A stretch of 64,000 nt of DNA from a virus: positions 1-64,000 of the IMG/VR virus record IMGVR_UViG_3300045988_115635; one strand, written 5' to 3'. Positions 1 through 9,910 of this stretch are shown piece by piece. Position 1 is the stretch's first letter. Each line of letters begins with the position of its first letter. The notes under the pieces are model-generated. The model saw only the letters and a program-made list of their open reading frames with translations, searched no databases and had not been told where the DNA came from. Made by a program: the position numbers and the translations under genes.

Positions 1-2868
1 TGGTCCTTGGATACCCTGGATACCCTGGCTACCCGTATCTCCTGTGTCTCCTTTGTCCCCTTTGTCCCCTTTAGGGATAACAAAGTTAAACACAGCAGCA
101 CTAGAAGAACCTGAATTAGTAACTTGTGCATTTGTACCAGCATCACCTGTTGTAACGTTGCCTACAGAAATGGTTGCAGCAGTACCAGTATCACCTTTTT
201 CACCGCGAGGAATACCAAAATTAAAGACAGCAGCACTTGTAGAACCTGAATTGTTTACATAGGCTTCTTCTGTACTGTCTACAATCTCAATTTCCCCAAC
301 GTCAACGGTAGCAGCGTTGCCTGTATCACCTTTCTCGCCTGCTGGTCCTTGGATACCCTGGGGTCCTTGATCTCCCTGGGGTCCTTGAACCCCTTGAATA
401 CCTTGGTCCCCTTTCTCGCCTTTAGGAATACCAAAATCAAAGATGGCTGCGCTAGAAGAACCAGAATTTGTGACAGTAGGAGTAGAACCAGGTTCTAATG
501 AAGTAACTTGACCTACCGCAATGGTTGCCGCATTTCCTGGAATACCCTGACTACCTGTATCACCCGTGTCTCCCTTGTCACCTTTGTCACCCTTTGGAAT
601 AGTGAATTTAAAGACAGCAGAGGTGCTAGAACCCGTATTTTCAACGTTTGCAGCAGTACCAGCTTCACCTGTTACTACATCACCAACAGAGATAGTAGCT
701 GCTTGACCTGGTATACCCTGGGGTCCCGTATCACCTGTATCACCTTTATCCCCTGTATCACCTTTAACGCCCTGAACACCTTGGGGGATAACAAAGTTAA
801 ATACAGCATCGGTGTTTGAGCCTGTATTAGTAACAGATGCTTGTGTACCAGCTTCACCCGTTGTAACGGTCCCAATGGTGATAGTAGAAGTATCGCCTTT
901 ATCACCTTGTGGACCTTTAATGTTGCCTACATCAATCCAATCACTATCAGCACTTGACCATACATACAAGCCACCATTGATTATGTATGCATCACCAACT
1001 TCACCCGTTGGGTGAGCTTGTTTTAAATCTTCATAGGAATCATAAGAGCCTAAGATAGTTACACTTGTACCATCATCACCCTTATCACCTTTAGGACCTT
1101 GTGCGCCCTTAGGAATGTTAAAGACTAATTGAGCGTCAGTAGTAGAACCATTGTTTACAACGCTTGCATTTTCGCCAGCGTCAAGTGTATTGGTAGAAAC
1201 TACAGTAATAGTAGCTGCTTGACCAGCAGGACCAGTAGCACCATCTTCGCCAGGAATACCTTGAATACCCTGCAAGCCTTGGGGAATACCAAATTTAAGT
1301 AAAGCAGCGTTAGAAGAACCTACGTTTTCTACAGTTGCATCGCTGCCAGCAGGTAAGGTTTCAACTGAACTAATGGCAATAGTAGCAGCTTGCCCCGCTT
1401 GCCCTGCTTGACCAGGTTCACCTTGTTCACCTTGATCACCTTTTTCACCCTTTGGAATTCCAAAGTTTAAAATAGCGTCAGTATTAGAACCTGTATTAGT
1501 AACAGTAGGTGTTTCGTCTGGTTCTAAGGCTACAACGGTACCAACGGTAACAGTTGCAGCGTCACCTTTTTCACCTTGTGGACCAGTTTCACCTTGTGGT
1601 CCTGGGTCCCCTTGAACACCCGCTGGTCCGCGCTCCCCGTCTAAACCGTCATTACCTTTAGGTCCCTGTGGAATAGTAAAAACAAGTTCAGCAGCACTTA
1701 GTGTACCTTCATTAGTAACGCTTGCTTGCGTTCCTGGTTTACCTGTAATTGTCTCTTTTACAGTAATAGTTGCAGATTGACCCGCTGGACCTGGCTCACC
1801 TGGCTCACCTTGGGGACCTTTTTCACCCTTTGGAATTCCAAAGTTTAAAATAGCGTCAGTATTAGAACCTGTATTAGTAACAGTAGGTGTTTCGTCTGGT
1901 TCTAAGGCTACAACGGTACCAACGGTAACAGTTGCAGCGTCACCTTTTTCACCTTGTGGACCAGTTTCACCTTGTGGTCCTGGGTCCCCTTGAACACCCG
2001 CTGGTCCGCGCTCCCCGTCTAAACCGTCATTACCTTTAGGTCCCTGTGGAATAGTAAAAACAAGTTCAGCAGCACTTAGTGTACCTTCATTAGTAACGCT
2101 TGCTTGCGTTCCTGGTTTACCTGTAATTGTCTCTTTTACAGTAATAGTTGCAGATTGACCCGCTGGACCTGGCTCACCTGGCTCACCTTGGGGACCTGGC
2201 TCACCTTGAATTCCTGGCTCGCCCTGTTCGCCCTTTTCGCCCTGTTCGCCCCGTTCGCCCCGTTCACCTTGAATCCCTTGGGGCCCTTGGTCCCCTTGGG
2301 GTCCTTGCTCGCCCTGGGGTCCCGCTGGTCCCGCTGGTCCCTGGGGTCCTCTAGGTAAATAAAAATTAAGAACAGGGTTTTTATTGTCACCCGTAATGGT
2401 TACTTGTGGAGTTTCCGATTCTTCAACTACGCCTATAGTGATATTCGGGACAAATGCACCTGATTCAATATCATTTTTAATATCAGCAATTTGTTCATAG
2501 ATTTGCTGAAGAATTTCATCGAACTTTTGTTCATTTTGAGAGATTTCATAGTTGTTTGCTCTCATAATTCTTCTAGCAAATGCTACATAAGCTACTCGGT
2601 AAAATTTTGTATTGTAGTCATAAGTCAAGAAGTCCATCAGTACATCATCAACAGTTTCATCTGATGGATTGACTACATAATGACAAGAAAGTTCGTTAGC
2701 TTTTATATCAACCTGACGTGTTAGATCAGGGTCAAATACCTCATCAATTTTGGCGCATTTAGCCGCTAAGTCAGTAACTTCTACAGCTTCATATAAAGAA
2801 CCATTCAAGCTATTAGTAAGCCAATCGCCAACCTTGATTGGTGTGCCTTTTGAATCTATTAGCATCTA
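1..2868 (-). CDS. collagen-like tail fibre protein, N-terminal ~955 codons; gene runs off the left window edge
   Basis: rc ATG at 2866-2868 preceded by AAAAGGAG; ~170-aa globular N-terminus then long Gly-X-Y tracts (GPQGPAGPAGPQGEQGPQGDQ...) interrupted by recurring ~45-aa modules ending ..LNFGIPKGEKG; no in-frame stop down to position 1; the plus-strand ORFs at 44-1015 and 2104-2358 are shadows of this gene. Confidence 0.8.
1441..2196. repeat. two near-identical tandem copies of a 378-bp (126-codon) unit inside the collagen-like gene
   Basis: 1441-1818 and 1819-2196 identical by eye over almost the entire unit; each encodes one collagen stretch plus one NFGIPKGEKG-type module. Confidence 0.8.
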
Positions 2869-2984
2869 AAAACTCCTTTTCTGTTCTGCTTTTCATTTTA
2901 TAGAACGCCGTGTTTTGTCGCTATGCACTCGCAAAGCGACAGCGCGTTTGTATTTGTAGGCAAACTTTGAGAAAAGGAGTAAAA

Positions 2985-3857
2985 ATGAAGGTTTGCAAGT
3001 TCATTGAAGATTACTACTACAAAAGAGCGGTAAAGGGTTTAAGAAAGTCAACGATTATAGGTTATAAATCTTCTATTGATTTATATATTTTGCCTACTTT
3101 TGGCAAAATGGATTTTGAAGATATTACCGTAGAAATGCTTGAAGACTGGATTGACGGTATAGAAAAAGAAGGTGCAGCTTTTAAGGCTTACAAAACCTTT
3201 AGACAAATCATTAGAAAAGCGATCGACTATGATGTATTTAAAGGCAAAGACCCAACTACTAAACATATTAAAGTAGCTAGAAAGCCAAGGCGTGAGCCTA
3301 AAATCTTAGATGGTCGTGAAGTTGGTGAATTATTAGAAGGGTTTAGAGGTCATTATTTAGAAGCTACGATTATTTGTGCCGTTACTCTAGGTTTAAGGCG
3401 CGGTGAAGCCTTTGGGCTTACTTGGGAGGATATTGATTTACGTTCTGGTAAGGTCAAAATTAAGCGTTCTTATCAAAAGATTGCAGGTGAGGTTTTGGTA
3501 TTACCTCCAAAAACCGAAAAATCTAAGCGTATTTGTTGGTTGCCAAAATCAGCTTTAGTAAGAATGCGTGATTTAGGTCGTGGTAAGACTGGTCGTATTT
3601 CTATTGTTGATCAACCAGATCAAATGGCTAAAGACTATAAAGAACACTGTAAGAAAAATAATTTACCGTATACATCTTTTACTAACTTACGTCATACCTG
3701 GGCAACATTAGCCTTAGAAGGCGGTGCTGATATTGCAACTATTGCCAATATGCTTGGTCACACCGATATTATGAATGCTTACAATCATTACATTGTTCCA
3801 AGAGATAAGATGTATAAGAAAACTCAAAAGATGGTTGACAATTTAATCAACTGGTAA
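2985..3857 (+). CDS. tyrosine site-specific recombinase (phage integrase/XerC-Rci family, ~290 aa); candidate shufflon recombinase
   Basis: ATG at 2985 with AAAAGGAG RBS (the track ORF 2910-3857 starts further upstream); C-terminal catalytic region LRHTWATLALEGGADIATIANMLGHTDIMNAYNHY with conserved R, HxxR and terminal Y; followed by a terminator; ~1 kb from the site array. Confidence 0.8.
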   Translation: MKVCKFIEDYYYKRAVKGLRKSTIIGYKSSIDLYILPTFGKMDFEDITVEMLEDWIDGIEKEGAAFKAYKTFRQIIRKAIDYDVFKGKDPTTKHIKVARKPRREPKILDGREVGELLEGFRGHYLEATIICAVTLGLRRGEAFGLTWEDIDLRSGKVKIKRSYQKIAGEVLVLPPKTEKSKRICWLPKSALVRMRDLGRGKTGRISIVDQPDQMAKDYKEHCKKNNLPYTSFTNLRHTWATLALEGGADIATIANMLGHTDIMNAYNHYIVPRDKMYKKTQKMVDNLINW

Positions 3858-3863
3858 ATCAAA

Positions 3864-3891
3864 GAGGGGTGATATTTCACCCCTCATTTTT
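3864..3891 (+). terminator. rho-independent terminator after the recombinase gene
   Basis: GAGGGGTGA-tatt-TCACCCCTC hairpin followed by ATTTTTT. Confidence 0.7.
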
Positions 3892-3894
3892 TAA

Positions 3895-4239
3895 TATGAA
3901 TCTTTATCCCTAGTAGAGGTTGAGGTTACACCATTTACTAATAACGTTCCTGACACGTCAACCTTTGAATGCTTTGCTGTGCCTGCATTACGCATGTGCT
4001 TTGTACGAGCACATATCGACGGTGCTAAAGGCGCTCATCCGTCTGGTCAGAGTTGGACAGTAGGAAACATCACTGACGAGGAGTATATCCCTGCAAACAA
4101 TTTCGATCTTTATGGATCGGCATCTAACAATGCAGCTATGCGTCCTTATGTGTGGTCGGATGGTCAGTTTGTTATCAAAAATCAGGGTCAAACACAAGCA
4201 GGAACGTCATTTAGTTTAAGCGGTTTTTGGTTCTACTAG
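3895..4239 (+). other. start-less open frame (115 codons) ending in TAG immediately before site Sa; possible decayed or silent C-terminal cassette
   Basis: open from the TAA at 3892; only a GTG at 3979 as start, no RBS; stop TAG 4237-4239 is one nt before GCATTCTATAT. Confidence 0.4.
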
Positions 4240-4256
4240 AGCATTCTATATCCCTG
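4240..4256 (+). repeat. shufflon site Sa (core TTCTATAT 4244-4251)
   Basis: GCATTCTATATCCCTG; follows TAG of the preceding frame. Confidence 0.7.
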
Positions 4257-4514
4257 ATCAAAACTGGCGAAGCTGTACTAAACAAGGGCGACAATACTAT
4301 CACGTTCAATCAGCCATTTCCTGCTGGTATGTATTACAACGGAGTAGCCGTTATTGCCGCTAACGCATCAGATCATGCAAGCGTCAATGGTAGAAGCGTA
4401 CAGGTTATAGAAGTCACAAGCGACCATATTAAGCTAAGGTTTCTATCCAGCTTTGATTCCATATCGCAAGGTAGCGTTAGATGGATTGCGGTTGCTACTA
4501 AGCAGGAGGGATAG
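4242..4514 (+). other. silent C-terminal cassette a (90 codons, begins HSI, no start codon, no RBS)
   Basis: CAT TCT ATA TCC... open to TAG 4512-4514, which abuts the next site; the track ORF 4227-4514 uses a TTG that reads through the site. Confidence 0.65.
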
Positions 4515-4529
4515 CATTCTATATACCAA
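4513..4529 (+). repeat. shufflon site Sb (core 4517-4524)
   Basis: TAG CATTCTATATACCAA. Confidence 0.7.
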
Positions 4530-4805
4530 TTTGAAGAATTTGATATTGACAGCGGGAGTGTTTCTCCTGGAACTTGGCTTACGATTGATGCACCAACAAA
4601 AGAAGGGTATATAGCAATATCAGCAACCTTTGTTGGAACAATAACAAGTGGAGGTTGGCAATGGATAATCAATAATCCGATATGTTTTCCTGAGTCTAAA
4701 TTAGCAAAAATACGTGTTGTAAACAATAACAATGCAAATGCTGCAATACTAGGTAAAATAATTGTCACGTATCTAAAATCTAAGCTTAACAATGATTCTC
4801 AATAA
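4515..4805 (+). other. silent C-terminal cassette b (96 codons, begins HSI)
   Basis: HSIYQFEEFDIDSG...ISATFVGTITSGGWQWIINNP...NNNNANAAILGKII..; stop TAA 4803-4805; homologous to cassette c. Confidence 0.65.
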
Positions 4806-4850
4806 AATAATTGAAAAACGAACAAATGTTCGAACTCAATAAAATAATTG
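4799..4850. promoter_or_regulatory. LexA/Cheo-box-like dyad CGAACAAATGTTCG (~4819-4832) flanked by CTCAATAAAATAATTGA palindromic arms
   Basis: exact match to the Firmicutes SOS-box pattern CGAAC-N4-GTTCG; one of six related copies in the window. Confidence 0.55.
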
Positions 4851-4862
4851 AGCAAAAAAAAT

Positions 4863-4884
4863 AACCCCCTCAATTGAGGGGGTT
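4863..4884. terminator. bidirectional rho-independent terminator downstream of the endolysin
   Basis: AACCCCCTC-aatt-GAGGGGGTT hairpin with an A-run before and a T-run after. Confidence 0.75.
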
Positions 4885-4890
4885 TTAATT

Positions 4891-6109
4891 TTAATAACGC
4901 AATACCTGACCAGGATAGATTGTGTAAGGTGAAGAAATACCATTCTTAGAAGCAATGGTTTTCCAATTTACGCCTAATTTCTGACCAATCTCTGACAAAG
5001 TATCACCTGATTTAACCGTATAAGTATGGTTAGAAGCAGATGAGCCAGAAGAACCAGGAATGGTGAGACGTTGACCAGGATAAATCAAGTTTACGTTAGT
5101 AATGCCGTTAGCAGATGCAATAGCATTTACAGTAGTACCGTAAGAAGATGCAATTCCTGATAAAGTATCGCCAGACTTTACGGTATACATTACGCCAGAA
5201 GAACCGCCGCCATTTACAATCTTCATAACCTCATCGTAGCGTGAACCTAATACGGTCTTACGCAAATTGCCATTACCGTAAACACCTTCCCAGGTTTCAT
5301 CAGCTAGGGTAGAAGCAGAAGAATTAGAAATATGGTTAATCATTTCTTGTACTTCATCGTAGCGTGAACCTAAAGCCTGCTTACGTGCATCACCATTACC
5401 ATAGTCACCTTGCATTACCTTAGCAACAAGGTCAATAGTACGACCTTCTGGGTCAGAGCCTGTTTCTGGGGTAGAAGGTGTAGGAACAGTAGCATTACCA
5501 GACGGGTCTGCATACTTCATCCATGCTTCAGCGTCCATGTAAGCCTTGTTAAGGTCAAGGTTTCCGCCGTAGCCATTCAATCTACCAGCAGATGAATACT
5601 GACGGATAGCACAGCTATAAGCACCTTCATTCCACGGAGTATCCTGATAGCCAGTAGTATTGTTATTTGCATACTGTGCAACCCATGTACCAGCATTTAA
5701 GCCTGATGCAGTGTCCCAGGGAAATACTGACTTAGAAGAATAAATCAAAGGCGTTACGTTTGTTCTATCCTTTACTCTCTGACAGAATTGGCGCAAATAC
5801 TCAACGTTGCCCCATGCACTGTTTTGACCAGATTCCCAGTCAGCACACAAAATACCTTTACCAATCCAATTGAGAATTGAATCTACAAAATGATCAGCTT
5901 CTGCTGTAGCATTGCCGCCAGAAATGTAATGATAAACGCCAAAAAGCTTACCAGCACTAATACACTGTTCTACCTGACGAACACAGTCGGGTGAAACATA
6001 TGATGTACCCTGGGTAGCCTTGCAGATTACAAAATCTGATGGAACTACAGCTAGGTTGATGCCATTTTGCCAATTTGAAACATCAATACCGTTCATTGCC
6101 ATAATTCGT
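4891..6109 (-). CDS. endolysin: GH25 muramidase + 2 CW_7-like repeats + 2 LysM domains
   Basis: start [12 protein letters not shown] with AAAGGAG RBS (the track ORF extends to 6135); GH25 N-terminus (GIDVSNWQ...[16 protein letters not shown]...GVYHY); repeats [21 protein letters not shown] and [21 protein letters not shown] (CW_7-like); two [15 protein letters not shown] LysM motifs. Confidence 0.9.
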
Positions 6110-6151
6110 TTTCTCCTTTCTTTGCAAAGAAACATACTTCAATTTTAAAAG

Positions 6152-6168
6152 TAGTTTTCTATATCGCA
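6152..6168 (+). repeat. shufflon site Se (core 6157-6164)
   Basis: TAG TTTTCTATATCGCAA immediately beyond the endolysin start region. Confidence 0.7.
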
Positions 6169-6478
6169 ATATGAATTAGAAGATTGTTCTAGTTTGGTAA
6201 CTGCAAAAGATAATTTCAGCGTTGTAGAAGCTAGAGTATTAAAGCTTGGTAACTTAAAAATGCTTTATATTTATGTTTCTTGTTCTAGCTTGCTAAGCAG
6301 TGGTACTAATATCAATGCGTTTAGCGTTTCTGGGGAACTTATTCCAAAACAGAAAATACCAATAAGTTCTGACACCGTAACTGGTTATATAGGTACAAAT
6401 GGTAATTCATGGATGACACTTCAGGTAGCAAGATCATCTAGTCAAAACATAGGTTGTTGTACATGTTTTTACATTTAG
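6155..6478 (+). other. silent C-terminal cassette e (107 codons, begins FSI)
   Basis: TTT TCT ATA TCG CAA... open to TAG 6476-6478, which abuts site Sd; the track ORF 6194-6478 (TTG start) is the same frame. Confidence 0.65.
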
Positions 6479-6492
6479 TTTTCTATATCCCA
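6476..6492 (+). repeat. shufflon site Sd (core 6481-6488)
   Basis: TAG TTTTCTATATCCCAC. Confidence 0.7.
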
Positions 6493-6826
6493 CTACTCAA
6501 CAACCGAAACACCAACGGGCAAAACCTGGATTGATGGCAAGCCGATCTACTGTAAAGTGATCAAGTTCGGCGCGATGACAGGCAACAATCGGTATACCAT
6601 AGCGCATGGTATTTCTTACGACACTATAGTGTCCTTTAGTGCTATTGCCCGCAACTCCACTAATAGTTACTTACCTCTTGCGCGTGTTGGATACAATGGC
6701 GACAATCAGATAGATGCGTCCTTAAACGGTTATGCGTATATCACTCCTGATAATGCAATCATCATTGGAGGCTCGCAGACCAACTACACAGGCGCTACCG
6801 TAATTATTGAGTACACCAAGGCTTAA
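6479..6826 (+). other. silent C-terminal cassette d (115 codons, begins FSI)
   Basis: FSISHYSTTETPTGKTWIDGKPIYCKVIKFGAMTGNN...IIEYTKA*; the track ORF 6557-6826 is its GTG-started tail; ends convergently on the stop of the 152-aa gene. Confidence 0.65.
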
Positions 6827-7281
6827 CTAAGTTTATACCCGATAACTTTAGTGATACCGAGTTTGTCCTGTTTTCGTCTTTCCATAGTGCCGTTGTTCGT
6901 AAAACCAAGTTCACCAACAGCATGGTCAGTGTTTAACGTGCATTGCGTTCCTGATATATTCATACCTTTATAAGCGAACCATAAGTAACCATAAGAAGTT
7001 GACGATGTTGCATTGATTCCGATGGTTTTCCCATTCGGATCAGCAATCCTTTGGGAACCACATATGCCATCATCGTGCTTCCAAAAGAACTCTAAGTAGT
7101 CGTAATTCGCCGCAGAATCGGAGAGCGTAATTGCGTCCTTGGTGCCTTGCTCGCTTTCAAAAAGAGTTTGGGATATAGAATCCCAGTTAGCTTCTAAAGT
7201 CGATAATCGCTGGTCAATCGCGTCTCCATCAATAATTAACTGTGTGTCACCGCTCGTATTTTTGCCATATACTTTACCCAT
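6823..7281 (-). CDS. expressed shufflon gene: 33-aa constant N-terminus + DSIS crossover + 115-aa variable C-terminal domain; putative receptor-binding/tail-fibre tip protein
   Basis: the only properly initiated gene in the region (AAAGGAG-8nt-ATG); codons 34-37 GAT TCT ATA TCC are the inverted copy of the site; N-terminus (IDQRLSTLEANW) predicted helical. Confidence 0.7.
   Translation of the reverse strand: MGKVYGKNTSGDTQLIIDGDAIDQRLSTLEANWDSISQTLFESEQGTKDAITLSDSAANYDYLEFFWKHDDGICGSQRIADPNGKTIGINATSSTSYGYLWFAYKGMNISGTQCTLNTDHAVGELGFTNNGTMERRKQDKLGITKVIGYKLS
7170..7184 (-). repeat. shufflon site S0, the only minus-orientation copy (core rc of 7174-7181), inside the 152-aa gene
   Basis: minus strand reads GGGATTCTATATCCC. 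Confidence 0.7.
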
Positions 7282-7314
7282 ATTTTTAACTCCTTTTAGA
7301 GGTGCTTTTAAAAA

Positions 7315-7343
7315 ATTATAGTAGATAGTTTTCTATATATCAA
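7315..7343 (-). promoter_or_regulatory. sigma-A-like promoter of the 152-aa gene: TTGATA-17-TATAAT, with the -35 overlapping site Sf
   Basis: -10 TATAAT = rc 7315-7320; -35 TTGATA = rc 7338-7343; 17-nt spacer. Confidence 0.5.
7326..7342 (+). repeat. shufflon site Sf (core 7331-7338)
   Basis: TAG TTTTCTATATATCAA immediately upstream of the 152-aa gene promoter. Confidence 0.7.
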
Positions 7344-7595
7344 AGTAAAACATATTCTAAAAGTTTGACAATTGGAGCTGGTGCAACAGGAGACTTTTCA
7401 GCAACTCTTGATACACCTGGTGGATATATGCCTGTAGGGGTTACAGCAATAACAACTGGGCAAGTAAAATGGACACTCGTTCAGTTCGAAATCAATGTTG
7501 AAAATAACTACCTAGTTGCTTCAATTCATAGTGTTGACACTTCTAGCAGAACATCAACTGTTGCTATGTCAGTAGCGTTTATAAAGGTGAGTTAG
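7329..7595 (+). other. silent C-terminal cassette f (88 codons, begins FSI)
   Basis: FSIYQSKTYSKSLTIGAGATGDF...AFIKVS*; the track ORF 7365-7595 (TTG) is the same frame; TAG 7593-7595 abuts site Sc. Confidence 0.65.
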
Positions 7596-7609
7596 CATTC
7601 TATAGGCTT
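7593..7609 (+). repeat. shufflon site Sc (core TTCTATAG 7598-7605, one mismatch)
   Basis: TAG CATTCTATAGGC. Confidence 0.6.
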
Positions 7610-7892
7610 TTATTTTGGTGTTCAAAGCGTAGATACTGGCAACATAGATTCAAACGTAAGTTCTTGGCAAACAATTCCCTATGTAGAGGGATATTTACCT
7701 GTTAGTGTTTGCTTTGTTGGATATTACACAAATGGTTCAAGATGGATTGTAAGTAACCCTATGGAAATAACCGATAATGAAAGTCACATAACGTTAGTAA
7801 GAATGTTTAATAACAATGATACGGTTTCTGCTGCTAAAGGTGATTTAGAGATTATATATATAAAAAGATCGTTGTTTGAAAACCTTAGCTAG
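7596..7892 (+). other. silent C-terminal cassette c (98 codons, begins HSI)
   Basis: HSIGFYFGVQSVDTGN...VCFVGYYTNGSRWIVSNP...NNNDTVSAAKGDLEIIYIKRSLFENLS*; homologous to cassette b; not in the ORF track because it has no start. Confidence 0.65.
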
Positions 7893-8199
7893 TTTCAGTA
7901 GGTACAGCAATAAGAGTAACGCTATCGGGAGCGTCAGAAACATCACCAACGTATACTTCTTTAGAGTTCTGCATAGCGGTGTTAATCATCGTTTGAATTT
8001 GGGTTTGGTCCAAGTATTGAGCAGGTGAATAGTCCTGTAAAATTTCTTTAGTATTAGCATCACGTCTGACTACAACAGGTGTTGGAATACCGTTAACAAC
8101 TTTAACCCCATACATAATTTCTTGTATGGGGTGTGAAGTATCATCTACTACATAACCATTAGAAAGTAGTACGTCTATGCCTGTTGTGCTTTCTGACAT
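7885..8199 (-). CDS. hypothetical protein (104 aa)
   Basis: ORF; tight coupling with the upstream gene. Confidence 0.55.
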   Translation of the reverse strand: MSESTTGIDVLLSNGYVVDDTSHPIQEIMYGVKVVNGIPTPVVVRRDANTKEILQDYSPAQYLDQTQIQTMINTAMQNSKEVYVGDVSDAPDSVTLIAVPTETS

Positions 8200-8624
8200 T
8201 AGTCTACGTGAATTTCTTTCATCTCACCGTTGATATTTTTAATTCTAAGACCGCTCACGTGCTCCCAGCCGTCCGTTTCTAAAGAATTAGGAGAGTTAAT
8301 CGCTTTTGAGTAAACTGCCGCCTTAGAAACGCTTAGATTCCTTCTGGCGTATATTTCAACACCTGCGTAAGAACCAACGTAAGCTTCTTCATCTAAAGGA
8401 TTATCACCAATCTGTTCTAATCCTAACATCTGATAAAGCTGCTCTAGTGGTATGACTTTTACAGTATCGTCATACTCATTGCGTCCTACATATTGTACCT
8501 GAACTTCATCATCACCAACTTCAAGCACAATCATTTTTTTATATACGCCGCCTGGCATAAAATACGGGTCTGAAAAATCTTCAGGCAAGAATTCTGCGCC
8601 AGGTTTAATATCATCGTAATTCAA
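8199..8624 (-). CDS. hypothetical protein (141 aa)
   Basis: ORF; overlapping start/stop with neighbours. Confidence 0.55.
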   Translation of the reverse strand: MNYDDIKPGAEFLPEDFSDPYFMPGGVYKKMIVLEVGDDEVQVQYVGRNEYDDTVKVIPLEQLYQMLGLEQIGDNPLDEEAYVGSYAGVEIYARRNLSVSKAAVYSKAINSPNSLETDGWEHVSGLRIKNINGEMKEIHVD

Positions 8625-9619: not shown

Positions 9620-9910
9620 CTATAGCTTGTTGTATTTTCTAAACTTATTGCGCTTCTTAAAGCGCCTGTATTTTCTGCTGTAAGTTCTTAGAATTTCGTC
9701 TAACATTAAGCAGTTTGTTTGCTCAACAGTTTCTGGGAGGGTAGTCAGATAAGGGTAATGTTTCTTATCGTCTATCAAAGTTTTAAAGATTAAATCTAGC
9801 GCGAATTGAGCATCTATAGGAGGGTCGCATAGTTCAGACTTATTGCCTTTGTACCAATTATCAATTTGGCTTTGAAACCCTTCAAAAGATATTTCTTCGT
9901 CCCATTCCAT
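9620..9910 (-). CDS. hypothetical protein (96 aa)
   Basis: ORF. Confidence 0.5.
   Translation of the reverse strand: MEWDEEISFEGFQSQIDNWYKGNKSELCDPPIDAQFALDLIFKTLIDDKKHYPYLTTLPETVEQTNCLMLDEILRTYSRKYRRFKKRNKFRKYNKL

Follow-up and report, generated by a model that had tools for sequence, protein, structure and literature searches.

The question raised by this locus is what a tyrosine recombinase does beside an array of short repeated sites in the genome of a large phage. The recombinase gene (2985–3857) lies in a stretch of 64,000 nucleotides, positions 1 to 64,000 of the IMG/VR virus record IMGVR_UViG_3300045988_115635, hereafter the window. A preliminary description of the same DNA proposed a shufflon recombinase like Rci, acting rather than, or in addition to, a lysogeny integrase. 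We conclude, with a probability of about 85%, that the recombinase is a site-specific DNA invertase and belongs to a Rin-type shufflon (PMC6109161), which switches the C-terminus of a small tail protein. Its closest family is Rin, not Rci. A system of this kind is already known from prophages; here the carrier is unusual, being a large myovirus whose window showed no lysogeny genes. The lysin gene inside the array and the cassettes shared with an unrelated prophage are also unusual.

The array consists of eight sites at 3900–7604 built on the 7-bp core TTCTATA, the core of the site at 3900 being degenerate. The repeat in the window is TTCTATATCCC, which has TTC..TA.CCC in common with the published recombination site (rix) of Rin. 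The window contains 11 copies of TTCTATAT against 4.5 expected, and six of them are found within 4244–7338 (3.1 kb), with a Poisson P of ~3e-7 for the 3.7-kb stretch. The seven silent cassettes are on the plus strand, opposite to the expressed gene, and all begin at the core in the frame T-TCT-ATA (Ser-Ile). They are open for 87–114 codons, with stops 2–4 nt ahead of the next core, and have neither the N-terminal module nor a start codon. The silent sites read TAG-NN-TTCTATA-(T/A)CC-like; the right arm is retained and the left arm is not. One more TTCTATA core (2905–2899, minus strand), in the gap between the fibre gene and the recombinase gene, has no arms, stop or GGGA flank and is probably there by chance, though it is conserved in the related contig L171.

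The constant part of the expressed gene, Rc, has 34 codons ending in ...NWD, and the core adds Ser-Ile to give a common 36-aa N-terminus (MGKVYGKNTSGDTQLIIDGDAIDQRLSTLEANWDSI, 7281–7174). This N-terminus is found in more than 20 entries of protein collections (86–100% identity), and these entries show no likeness beyond NWDSI. The metagenome protein P0154 has the constant N-terminus joined to a homologue of V0, and P0144 has it joined to a V3-like cassette.

Arrangements were compared among metagenome contigs with a recombinase identical or at least 98% identical to that of the window; the protein is conserved at 98–100% among the shuffling genomes. In contigs L171–L175, which come from several samples, the segment 7174–7604 of the window is reversed at 100% identity, and the ends of the reversed segment are exactly the two 7-bp cores. 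This coincidence indicates that the crossover takes place within TTCTATA and that the site at 7598 is functional. L003 and L004 have the segment 6481–7181 in the opposite orientation (97% identity), with V4 joined to Rc and the V5 of the window silent. The same segment is likewise inverted in L186, in a different background. When the cassettes of 13 contigs were mapped, 29 types and seven or more arrangements were counted. L185 and L186 are separated by one inversion, and L179 and L180 by two, one of which is between two silent sites. Besides these site-bounded inversions, the near-identical genomes differ by whole cassette units, as in the clean 268-bp indel at core 6481 that separates L185 from the window. 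Misassembly is unlikely: the repeats are short, with a length of 10–17 bp, and identical states are found in independent samples. In every arrangement seen, V6 and Rc are head-to-head and V3 adjoins the lysin gene.

These arrangements are consistent with the following mechanism. The invertase would act on the asymmetric 7-bp crossover core TTCTATA with a short right arm, (T/A)CCC. The site in the only expressed gene of the set, which encodes ...N-W-D-S-I, has a matching left arm, TGGGA. All the other sites head promoterless and start-less 3′ cassettes, each placed after the stop of the previous cassette (TAG and 2 nt). Recombination of the expressed site with an oppositely oriented silent site would invert the DNA between them, placing the constant N-terminus in frame with a different C-terminal domain of 87–118 residues, and recombination of two silent sites would reorder the cassette stock. 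The product is probably a small receptor-binding protein of the tail or baseplate, and with its C-termini switched, the phage population would carry mixed host-recognition specificities. Catalysis of these events by the recombinase, its timing within infection, and an effect on host range are our inferences.

The same combination of enzyme and array is found in related loci. The best phage matches of the recombinase are the "integrase" of Bifidobacterium phage PMBT6 (39% identity, E 6e-56) and the enzyme of Siphoviridae sp. ctl617 (38%, E 1e-58), after which the phage matches fall to 29% identity or less. Both enzymes adjoin TTCCGTAACC arrays in the tail/lysis region, where the expressed gene has gggaTTCCGTAaccc and the silent sites read tagcwTTCCGTAaccc, the same grammar as in the window. 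The grammar is also the same in L007, where the recombinase is 71% identical to that of the window and the core is TTCCGTA. The GGGA-core-WCCC form of the expressed-gene site recurs in PMBT6, ctl617, L007, and the prophage contig L177. The survey took in 127 loci, drawn from IMG/VR and GTDB genomes, whose recombinases are 38–49% identical to that of the window. The pattern TTC[CT][GA]TA[TA]CC is present two or more times in 104 of these 127 loci, compared with 2 of 32 loci whose recombinases are at most 32% identical. The genome loci belong to Collinsella, Olsenella, Eggerthellaceae, Enteroscipio, and Bifidobacterium, and the co-occurrence of enzyme and array spans hosts of 38–71% GC. Among the 510 family sites, 63% are preceded by a stop codon and 2 nt and 17% by GGGA, and exactly one GGGA-type site is present in 68 loci.

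A megablast search with 2800–8200 of the window gave no match among 50,697 phage records. In the IMG/VR contigs L028–L048 (78–133 kb, 38–41% GC), a Rin-like enzyme adjoins arrays of up to 13 TTCCGTATCC or TTCCATATCC sites. In most of these phages another tyrosine recombinase is encoded some 5 kb from it, and they show no synteny with the window. Low-GC IMG/VR phages of about 130 kb with 8–13 sites were considered as the phage type of the window and rejected, since no flanking gene is common to both and a further tyrosine recombinase is present in most of them.

The recombinase ORF runs from ATG 2985 to TAA 3857, with AAAGGAG 8 nt 5′ of the ATG, and is the sole large plus-strand gene in its part of the window. 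As the preliminary description stated, the gene is located between a collagen-like tail fibre gene (start at 2866, minus strand) and the first cassette, and it has its own hairpin terminator (3864–3885). The description of the product as an Int-family tyrosine recombinase of about 290 aa is also confirmed. Pfam gives Phage_integrase over residues 124–271 (53 bits; cut-off 27.1) and, from residue 9, Phage_int_SAM_3, a SAM-like core-binding domain, and PHROG_1 "integrase" matches with E 2e-44. NCBIfam gives only sub-threshold matches, to Xer and integron-integrase families; the scores fall short of the Xer cut-offs (64 bits versus 220 for XerA, 53 versus 330 for XerD, and 40 versus 335 for XerC). 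The AlphaFold2 model (pLDDT 90) consists of the core-binding and catalytic domains and nothing else. Its top Foldseek match is Tn1549 Int at residues 82–397 (TM 0.80); XerA and lambda Int at residues 75–356 are further matches, the recombinase being matched over its whole length. Judging from the predicted fold and the profiles, the recombinase is nearest to the arm-less cores of phage and integrative and conjugative element integrases (Tn1549 Int, lambda Int, XerA). No arm-binding domain is found among the Pfam domains or in the Foldseek alignment of the model. The protein ends 21 residues past the catalytic Tyr269, of 290 in all, in a single helix, with no additional C-terminal domain. Such a domain is the defining feature of Rci and is thought to enforce inversion only (PMC11852207). 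The shufflon function proposed earlier is thus upheld by the inversions, the link of the family to arrays, and the homology with PMBT6 and ctl617, while the assignment to the Rci family is not.

The preliminary description read R..HxxR..Y motifs, of which Arg138, Arg236, and Tyr269 are present. The His of the HxxR box is replaced with Thr233, so that the motif reads TNLR-H. Arg138, Lys176, Arg236, His237, His259, and Tyr269 are invariant across 119 homologues, and Thr occupies the position of Thr233 in 107 of the 119. Family-wide, the first catalytic His position is Thr, sometimes Met or Arg. The replacement could be taken to mean that the ORF is decayed or encodes an unrelated enzyme, and that the inversions, though real, are made by a host recombinase or another recombinase of the phage. 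A second inversion locus in bifidophages, which has no adjoining recombinase (Mavrich et al., PMC6109161), gives some ground for this explanation. We regard it as very improbable, given the invariant Arg, Lys, Arg, His, and Tyr residues, the conservation of the protein among the shuffling genomes, and the co-occurrence of enzyme and array across hosts of such different GC content.

Several observations weigh against the invertase assignment or limit its extent. The canonical HxxR His is Thr, and the activity could be lower, though the substitution is family-wide. The cassette-unit indels mean that events between direct repeats also occur, and the recombinase is therefore not proven to be inversion-only. 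All the arrangement data are from separate metagenome assemblies, not from a single clonal population. Finally, the lysin gene would be turned around by any inversion that extends to V1 and V2, and none of 10 contexts shows this state, suggesting that part of the array may be inaccessible.

The last point concerns the endolysin gene embedded in the array. The gene is antiparallel to the recombinase gene in all 10 contexts of identical lysin, and flipping of the lysin along with the array, which was considered, is unsupported by this constant orientation. Perhaps V1 and V2 have no access to Rc, or perhaps the lysin-flipped states are counter-selected. V0–V2, on the left of the lysin gene, could reach Rc only via an inversion that also flips this gene; V1 and V2 are found only in the lineage of the window. 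Promoter-like elements overlap sites of the array. The −35 hexamer of the best match, which reads into Rc, consists of the opening codons of V6 and overlaps the site at 7331. A weaker element (6142–6169, minus strand, 9/12) reads into the lysin gene and straddles the site at 6157, its −35 being formed by the first codons of V3. Compared with shuffled sequence, the region as a whole showed no excess in the promoter scan, which makes the 11/12 match no more than a lead. The features of the locus are listed in Table 1.

Table 1. Coordinates of the recombinase gene, the site array, and neighboring features in the window.
Positions	Strand	Feature	Details
2985–3857	+	Rin-type tyrosine recombinase gene, 290 aa	Core-binding and catalytic domains; R138, K176, (T233), R236, H259, Y269
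3864–3885	+	Intrinsic terminator-like hairpin of recombinase gene	GAGGGGTGA-TATT-TCACCCCTC, then T-run
3900–4239	+	V0 silent cassette and degenerate site	ATCTTTA-TCCC, 2 core mismatches; open 112 aa, 3901–4236; stop 4237–4239
4244–4514	+	V1 silent cassette and site	tagagca-TTCTATA-TCCC; 89 aa, H-lectin/Gp53-like_C type
4517–4805	+	V2 silent cassette and site	tagca-TTCTATA-TACC; 95 aa
4863–4884	.	Bidirectional terminator-like hairpin, 3′ of lysin gene	–
4891–6135	−	Endolysin (GH25, CW_7, LysM) within array	Pfam; passenger, not cassette
6157–6478	+	V3 silent cassette and site	tagtt-TTCTATA-TCGC; 106 aa
6481–6826	+	V4 silent cassette and site	tagtt-TTCTATA-TCCC; 114 aa, "TGKTWIDGKPIY" type; the expressed one in L003 and L004
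6823–7281	−	Expressed gene Rc-V5, 152 aa	V5 7173–6826; stop 6825–6823
7169–7185	−	Expressed-gene recombination site	Perfect dyad TGGGA-TTCTATA-TCCCA; 5-bp arms, asymmetric core 7180–7174
7315–7343	−	Best promoter-like match of region	TTGATA-17-TATAAT, 11/12, reads into Rc
7331–7595	+	V6 silent cassette and site	tagtt-TTCTATA-TATC; 87 aa; always head-to-head with Rc
7598–7892	+	V7 silent cassette and site	tagca-TTCTATA-GGC; 97 aa
9929–10004	−	tRNA-Arg(TCT) gene	TTCTATA core not in gene

The nature of the switched protein is indicated mainly by its predicted structure. Neither Pfam nor PHROGs gives a match for the expressed 152-aa protein. In the AlphaFold2 model of Rc-V5 (pLDDT 81), a helix at the N-terminus leads into a β-sandwich. 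The model matches Kayvirus baseplate and receptor-binding protein chains, namely the baseplate chain 9euf_8 of Staphylococcus phage phi812 (E 7.5e-6, TM 0.64) and the C-terminal domains of phage K gp144. Among the seven modeled fusions of Rc with cassettes, only that with V1 has a sub-threshold tail-fibre match, to Pfam Gp53-like_C (22.5 bits, under its cut-off). Sister cassettes are H-type lectin domains, as in P0148 (40.5 bits). The collagen-like fibre gene on the other side of the recombinase gene contains a 378-bp tandem duplication (about 1441–2196, minus strand) that is single in L005, indicating that the fibre length is polymorphic; the full fibre has 1361 aa in L171.

The gene content of the window bears on a role in lysogeny. 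Nearly all genes are on the minus strand, and they include baseplate and tail genes and a complete set for replication, with DnaE, DnaB, DnaC, primase, a UvsX-like recombinase, an SNF2 helicase, ThyX, and a methyltransferase. No second tyrosine or serine recombinase is found in the 64 kb, and the PHROG scans, which covered the 30 largest of the other ORFs, give no lysogeny function. No attP-like site or tRNA-derived core was recognized on checking the tRNA-Arg gene, which is without the TTCTATA core. The DnaE is 67% identical to that of Eggerthella phage LE2-3, a 112-kb myovirus and the nearest known phage, and no close relatives of it were found in IMG/VR. Contigs of the phage type of the window reach 111,866 bp, and the GC content is 38% for the window versus 63% for LE2-3. 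LE2-3 has no match to the recombinase and no annotated integrase. No copy of the recombinase more than 50% identical was found in 185,579 representative bacterial genomes (one per species), the best being 48% identical, in Collinsella prophages, and nothing there matched the clade of the window. Prophage relatives have separate integrases, a large serine recombinase in L007 for example, and bifidophages have their own Int (PMC6109161). A lysogeny role for the recombinase is unsupported, as the window shows neither a second recombinase nor lysogeny genes, LE2-3 is without an annotated integrase, and the prophage relatives have separate ones. The suggestion of an additional lysogeny integrase accordingly finds no backing in the domain composition or in the sites. 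Two side observations concern the region of the tRNA-Arg gene. LE2-3 has tRNA-Met, tRNA-Cys, and tRNA-Arg genes at a comparable place, and a 96-aa gene at about 9620–9910 (minus strand) has a precomputed Pfam match to Tad8 (PF25189) in the identical contig L005 and may be anti-defence.

A second task besides cassette inversion should still be considered: at a site sharing the core, the enzyme might carry out integration of the phage or resolution of genome multimers. No other recombinase was found in the 64 kb, profile and fold put the enzyme beside integrase cores, and the cassette-unit indels and the cassette pair shared with a prophage (described below) represent reactions beyond simple inversion at the sites. 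We nevertheless consider a dual role improbable, in view of the missing arm-binding domain, the tRNA-Arg gene without the core, the failure to find a copy more than 50% identical in representative bacterial genomes, the situation in LE2-3, and the separate integrases of the prophage relatives.

LE2-3 also bears on another explanation, that of an ordinary lysogeny integrase, with the repeats merely a conserved coding motif of paralogous tail genes. Between the lysin gene and tail fibre 1 of LE2-3 (L009 16824–18849), in the place taken by the recombinase gene and the cassettes in the window, are four full-length small tail-protein genes, LE23_36–39, one annotated as "tail fiber protein" and one as "structural protein." All have Rc-like N-termini (MAKLKYRGTGGVVELLD...RLSSLEAK), each with a different C-terminus. 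These N-termini indicate the same protein family, represented by tandem paralogues in LE2-3 and by one gene with a shufflon in the window. The absence of a recombinase at this spot in LE2-3 and the "integrase" labels of PHROG_1 and of the PMBT6 and ctl617 records are in line with the integrase explanation. However, the silent cassettes, unlike the LE2-3 paralogues, have no N-terminal module or start codon, core-bounded segments are inverted at 97–100% identity in sister genomes, and the family is tied to arrays at 104 of 127 loci. These findings leave an ordinary integrase with hardly any likelihood and favor the Rin-type invertase.

The array may also exchange cassettes with other phages. The prophage L177, siphovirus-like and located on a contig of 205 kb (43% GC), has a Rin-like enzyme 46% identical to that of the window, and it uses the TTCTATA core and the AACTGGGA left arm, as the window does. 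Its segment 10106–10821 is 94.8% identical over 716 bp to 6473–7188 of the window, and no other homology exists between the two. What the two share is V4 and V5 in tail-to-tail order, with a site at either end and the AACTGGGA left arm included. Together with the exact site-to-site gain and loss of cassette units, this pair suggests that site-bounded cassettes move between phages. A tentative extension, which we consider rather doubtful, is that the phage never lysogenises, that the invertase works in lytic growth, and that the sites double as an integron-like system of cassette exchange between phages.

The locus extends Rin-type shufflons beyond a few prophages of Actinobacteria to a large myovirus without lysogeny genes in view and to low-GC phages, and more than 100 such loci are now recognized in public collections. 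They can be searched for by a simple grammar, GGGA or TAG-NN, then TTCYRTA, then WCCC. Enzymes of this family are routinely mis-annotated as "integrase" in phage records, which is corrected here. The label causes phages to be wrongly marked as temperate, and such mislabeling matters for phage therapy screening and lifestyle prediction. The 29 cassette types, the seven or more arrangements, and the one inter-phage pair suggest fast and modular turnover of receptor-binding domains in nature.

Compared with known systems, the R64/IncI shufflon (Rci, sfx) is similar in its tyrosine recombinase and multiple inversions (PMC11852207). Its sites likewise lack symmetry, having a 7-bp crossover region and a single conserved arm, as in the silent sites of the window, which have the core and right arm only, and the choice is likewise among alternative C-termini of one adhesin-like protein. 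The enzymes differ in the extra C-terminal domain of Rci, which was compared by description only, and the target there is the plasmid pilus adhesin PilV, not a phage tail protein. Gin of Mu, Cin of P1, and Min of p15B share with the window an inversion system encoded by the phage, by which a tail-fibre or receptor-binding gene has its C-terminal portion exchanged. They are serine recombinases, whereas the window encodes a tyrosine recombinase, and they need an enhancer and Fis. Min is a multi-segment shufflon (summarised in PMC6109161). A BV01-like Phocaeicola phage (preprint PMC13596623) has an active multi-cassette shufflon over the distal end of a tail-fibre gene, a flanking recombinase, and configurations that differ between samples. 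It differs in being a temperate Bacteroidota phage with three cassettes and an unrelated 10-bp motif, TGGGAGAACT; the recombinases were compared by description only.

The closest resemblance is to the Rin shufflon (Mavrich et al. 2018), later reported in Eggerthella prophages (PMC8778435), with its arm-less tyrosine invertase, constant Rc, variable Rv cassettes, and 11-bp asymmetric rix. In both systems, an arm-less tyrosine recombinase adjoins the array, and a short asymmetric repeat separates a constant 5′ Rc from promoterless 3′ Rv cassettes of about 90–115 codons. The repeats resemble one another (rix as published, TTCCCTAACCC; TTCCGTAACCC in PMBT6 and ctl617; window as given above), and GGGA precedes the expressed site and TAG with 2 nt the silent sites both in PMBT6/ctl617 and in the window. 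The protein identity of 38–39% was measured to the ctl617 and PMBT6 enzymes. The described Rin carriers are all temperate with a separate integrase, whereas the window belongs to a large LE2-3-type myovirus of 38% GC and shows no integrase, lysogeny module, or other recombinase within 64 kb. Rc has 36 residues in the window compared with 168 in bifidophages, and the core is TTCTATA. The cassettes of the window flank Rc on both sides, with the lysin gene within the array, and their pool, 29 types on 13 contigs, is much larger.

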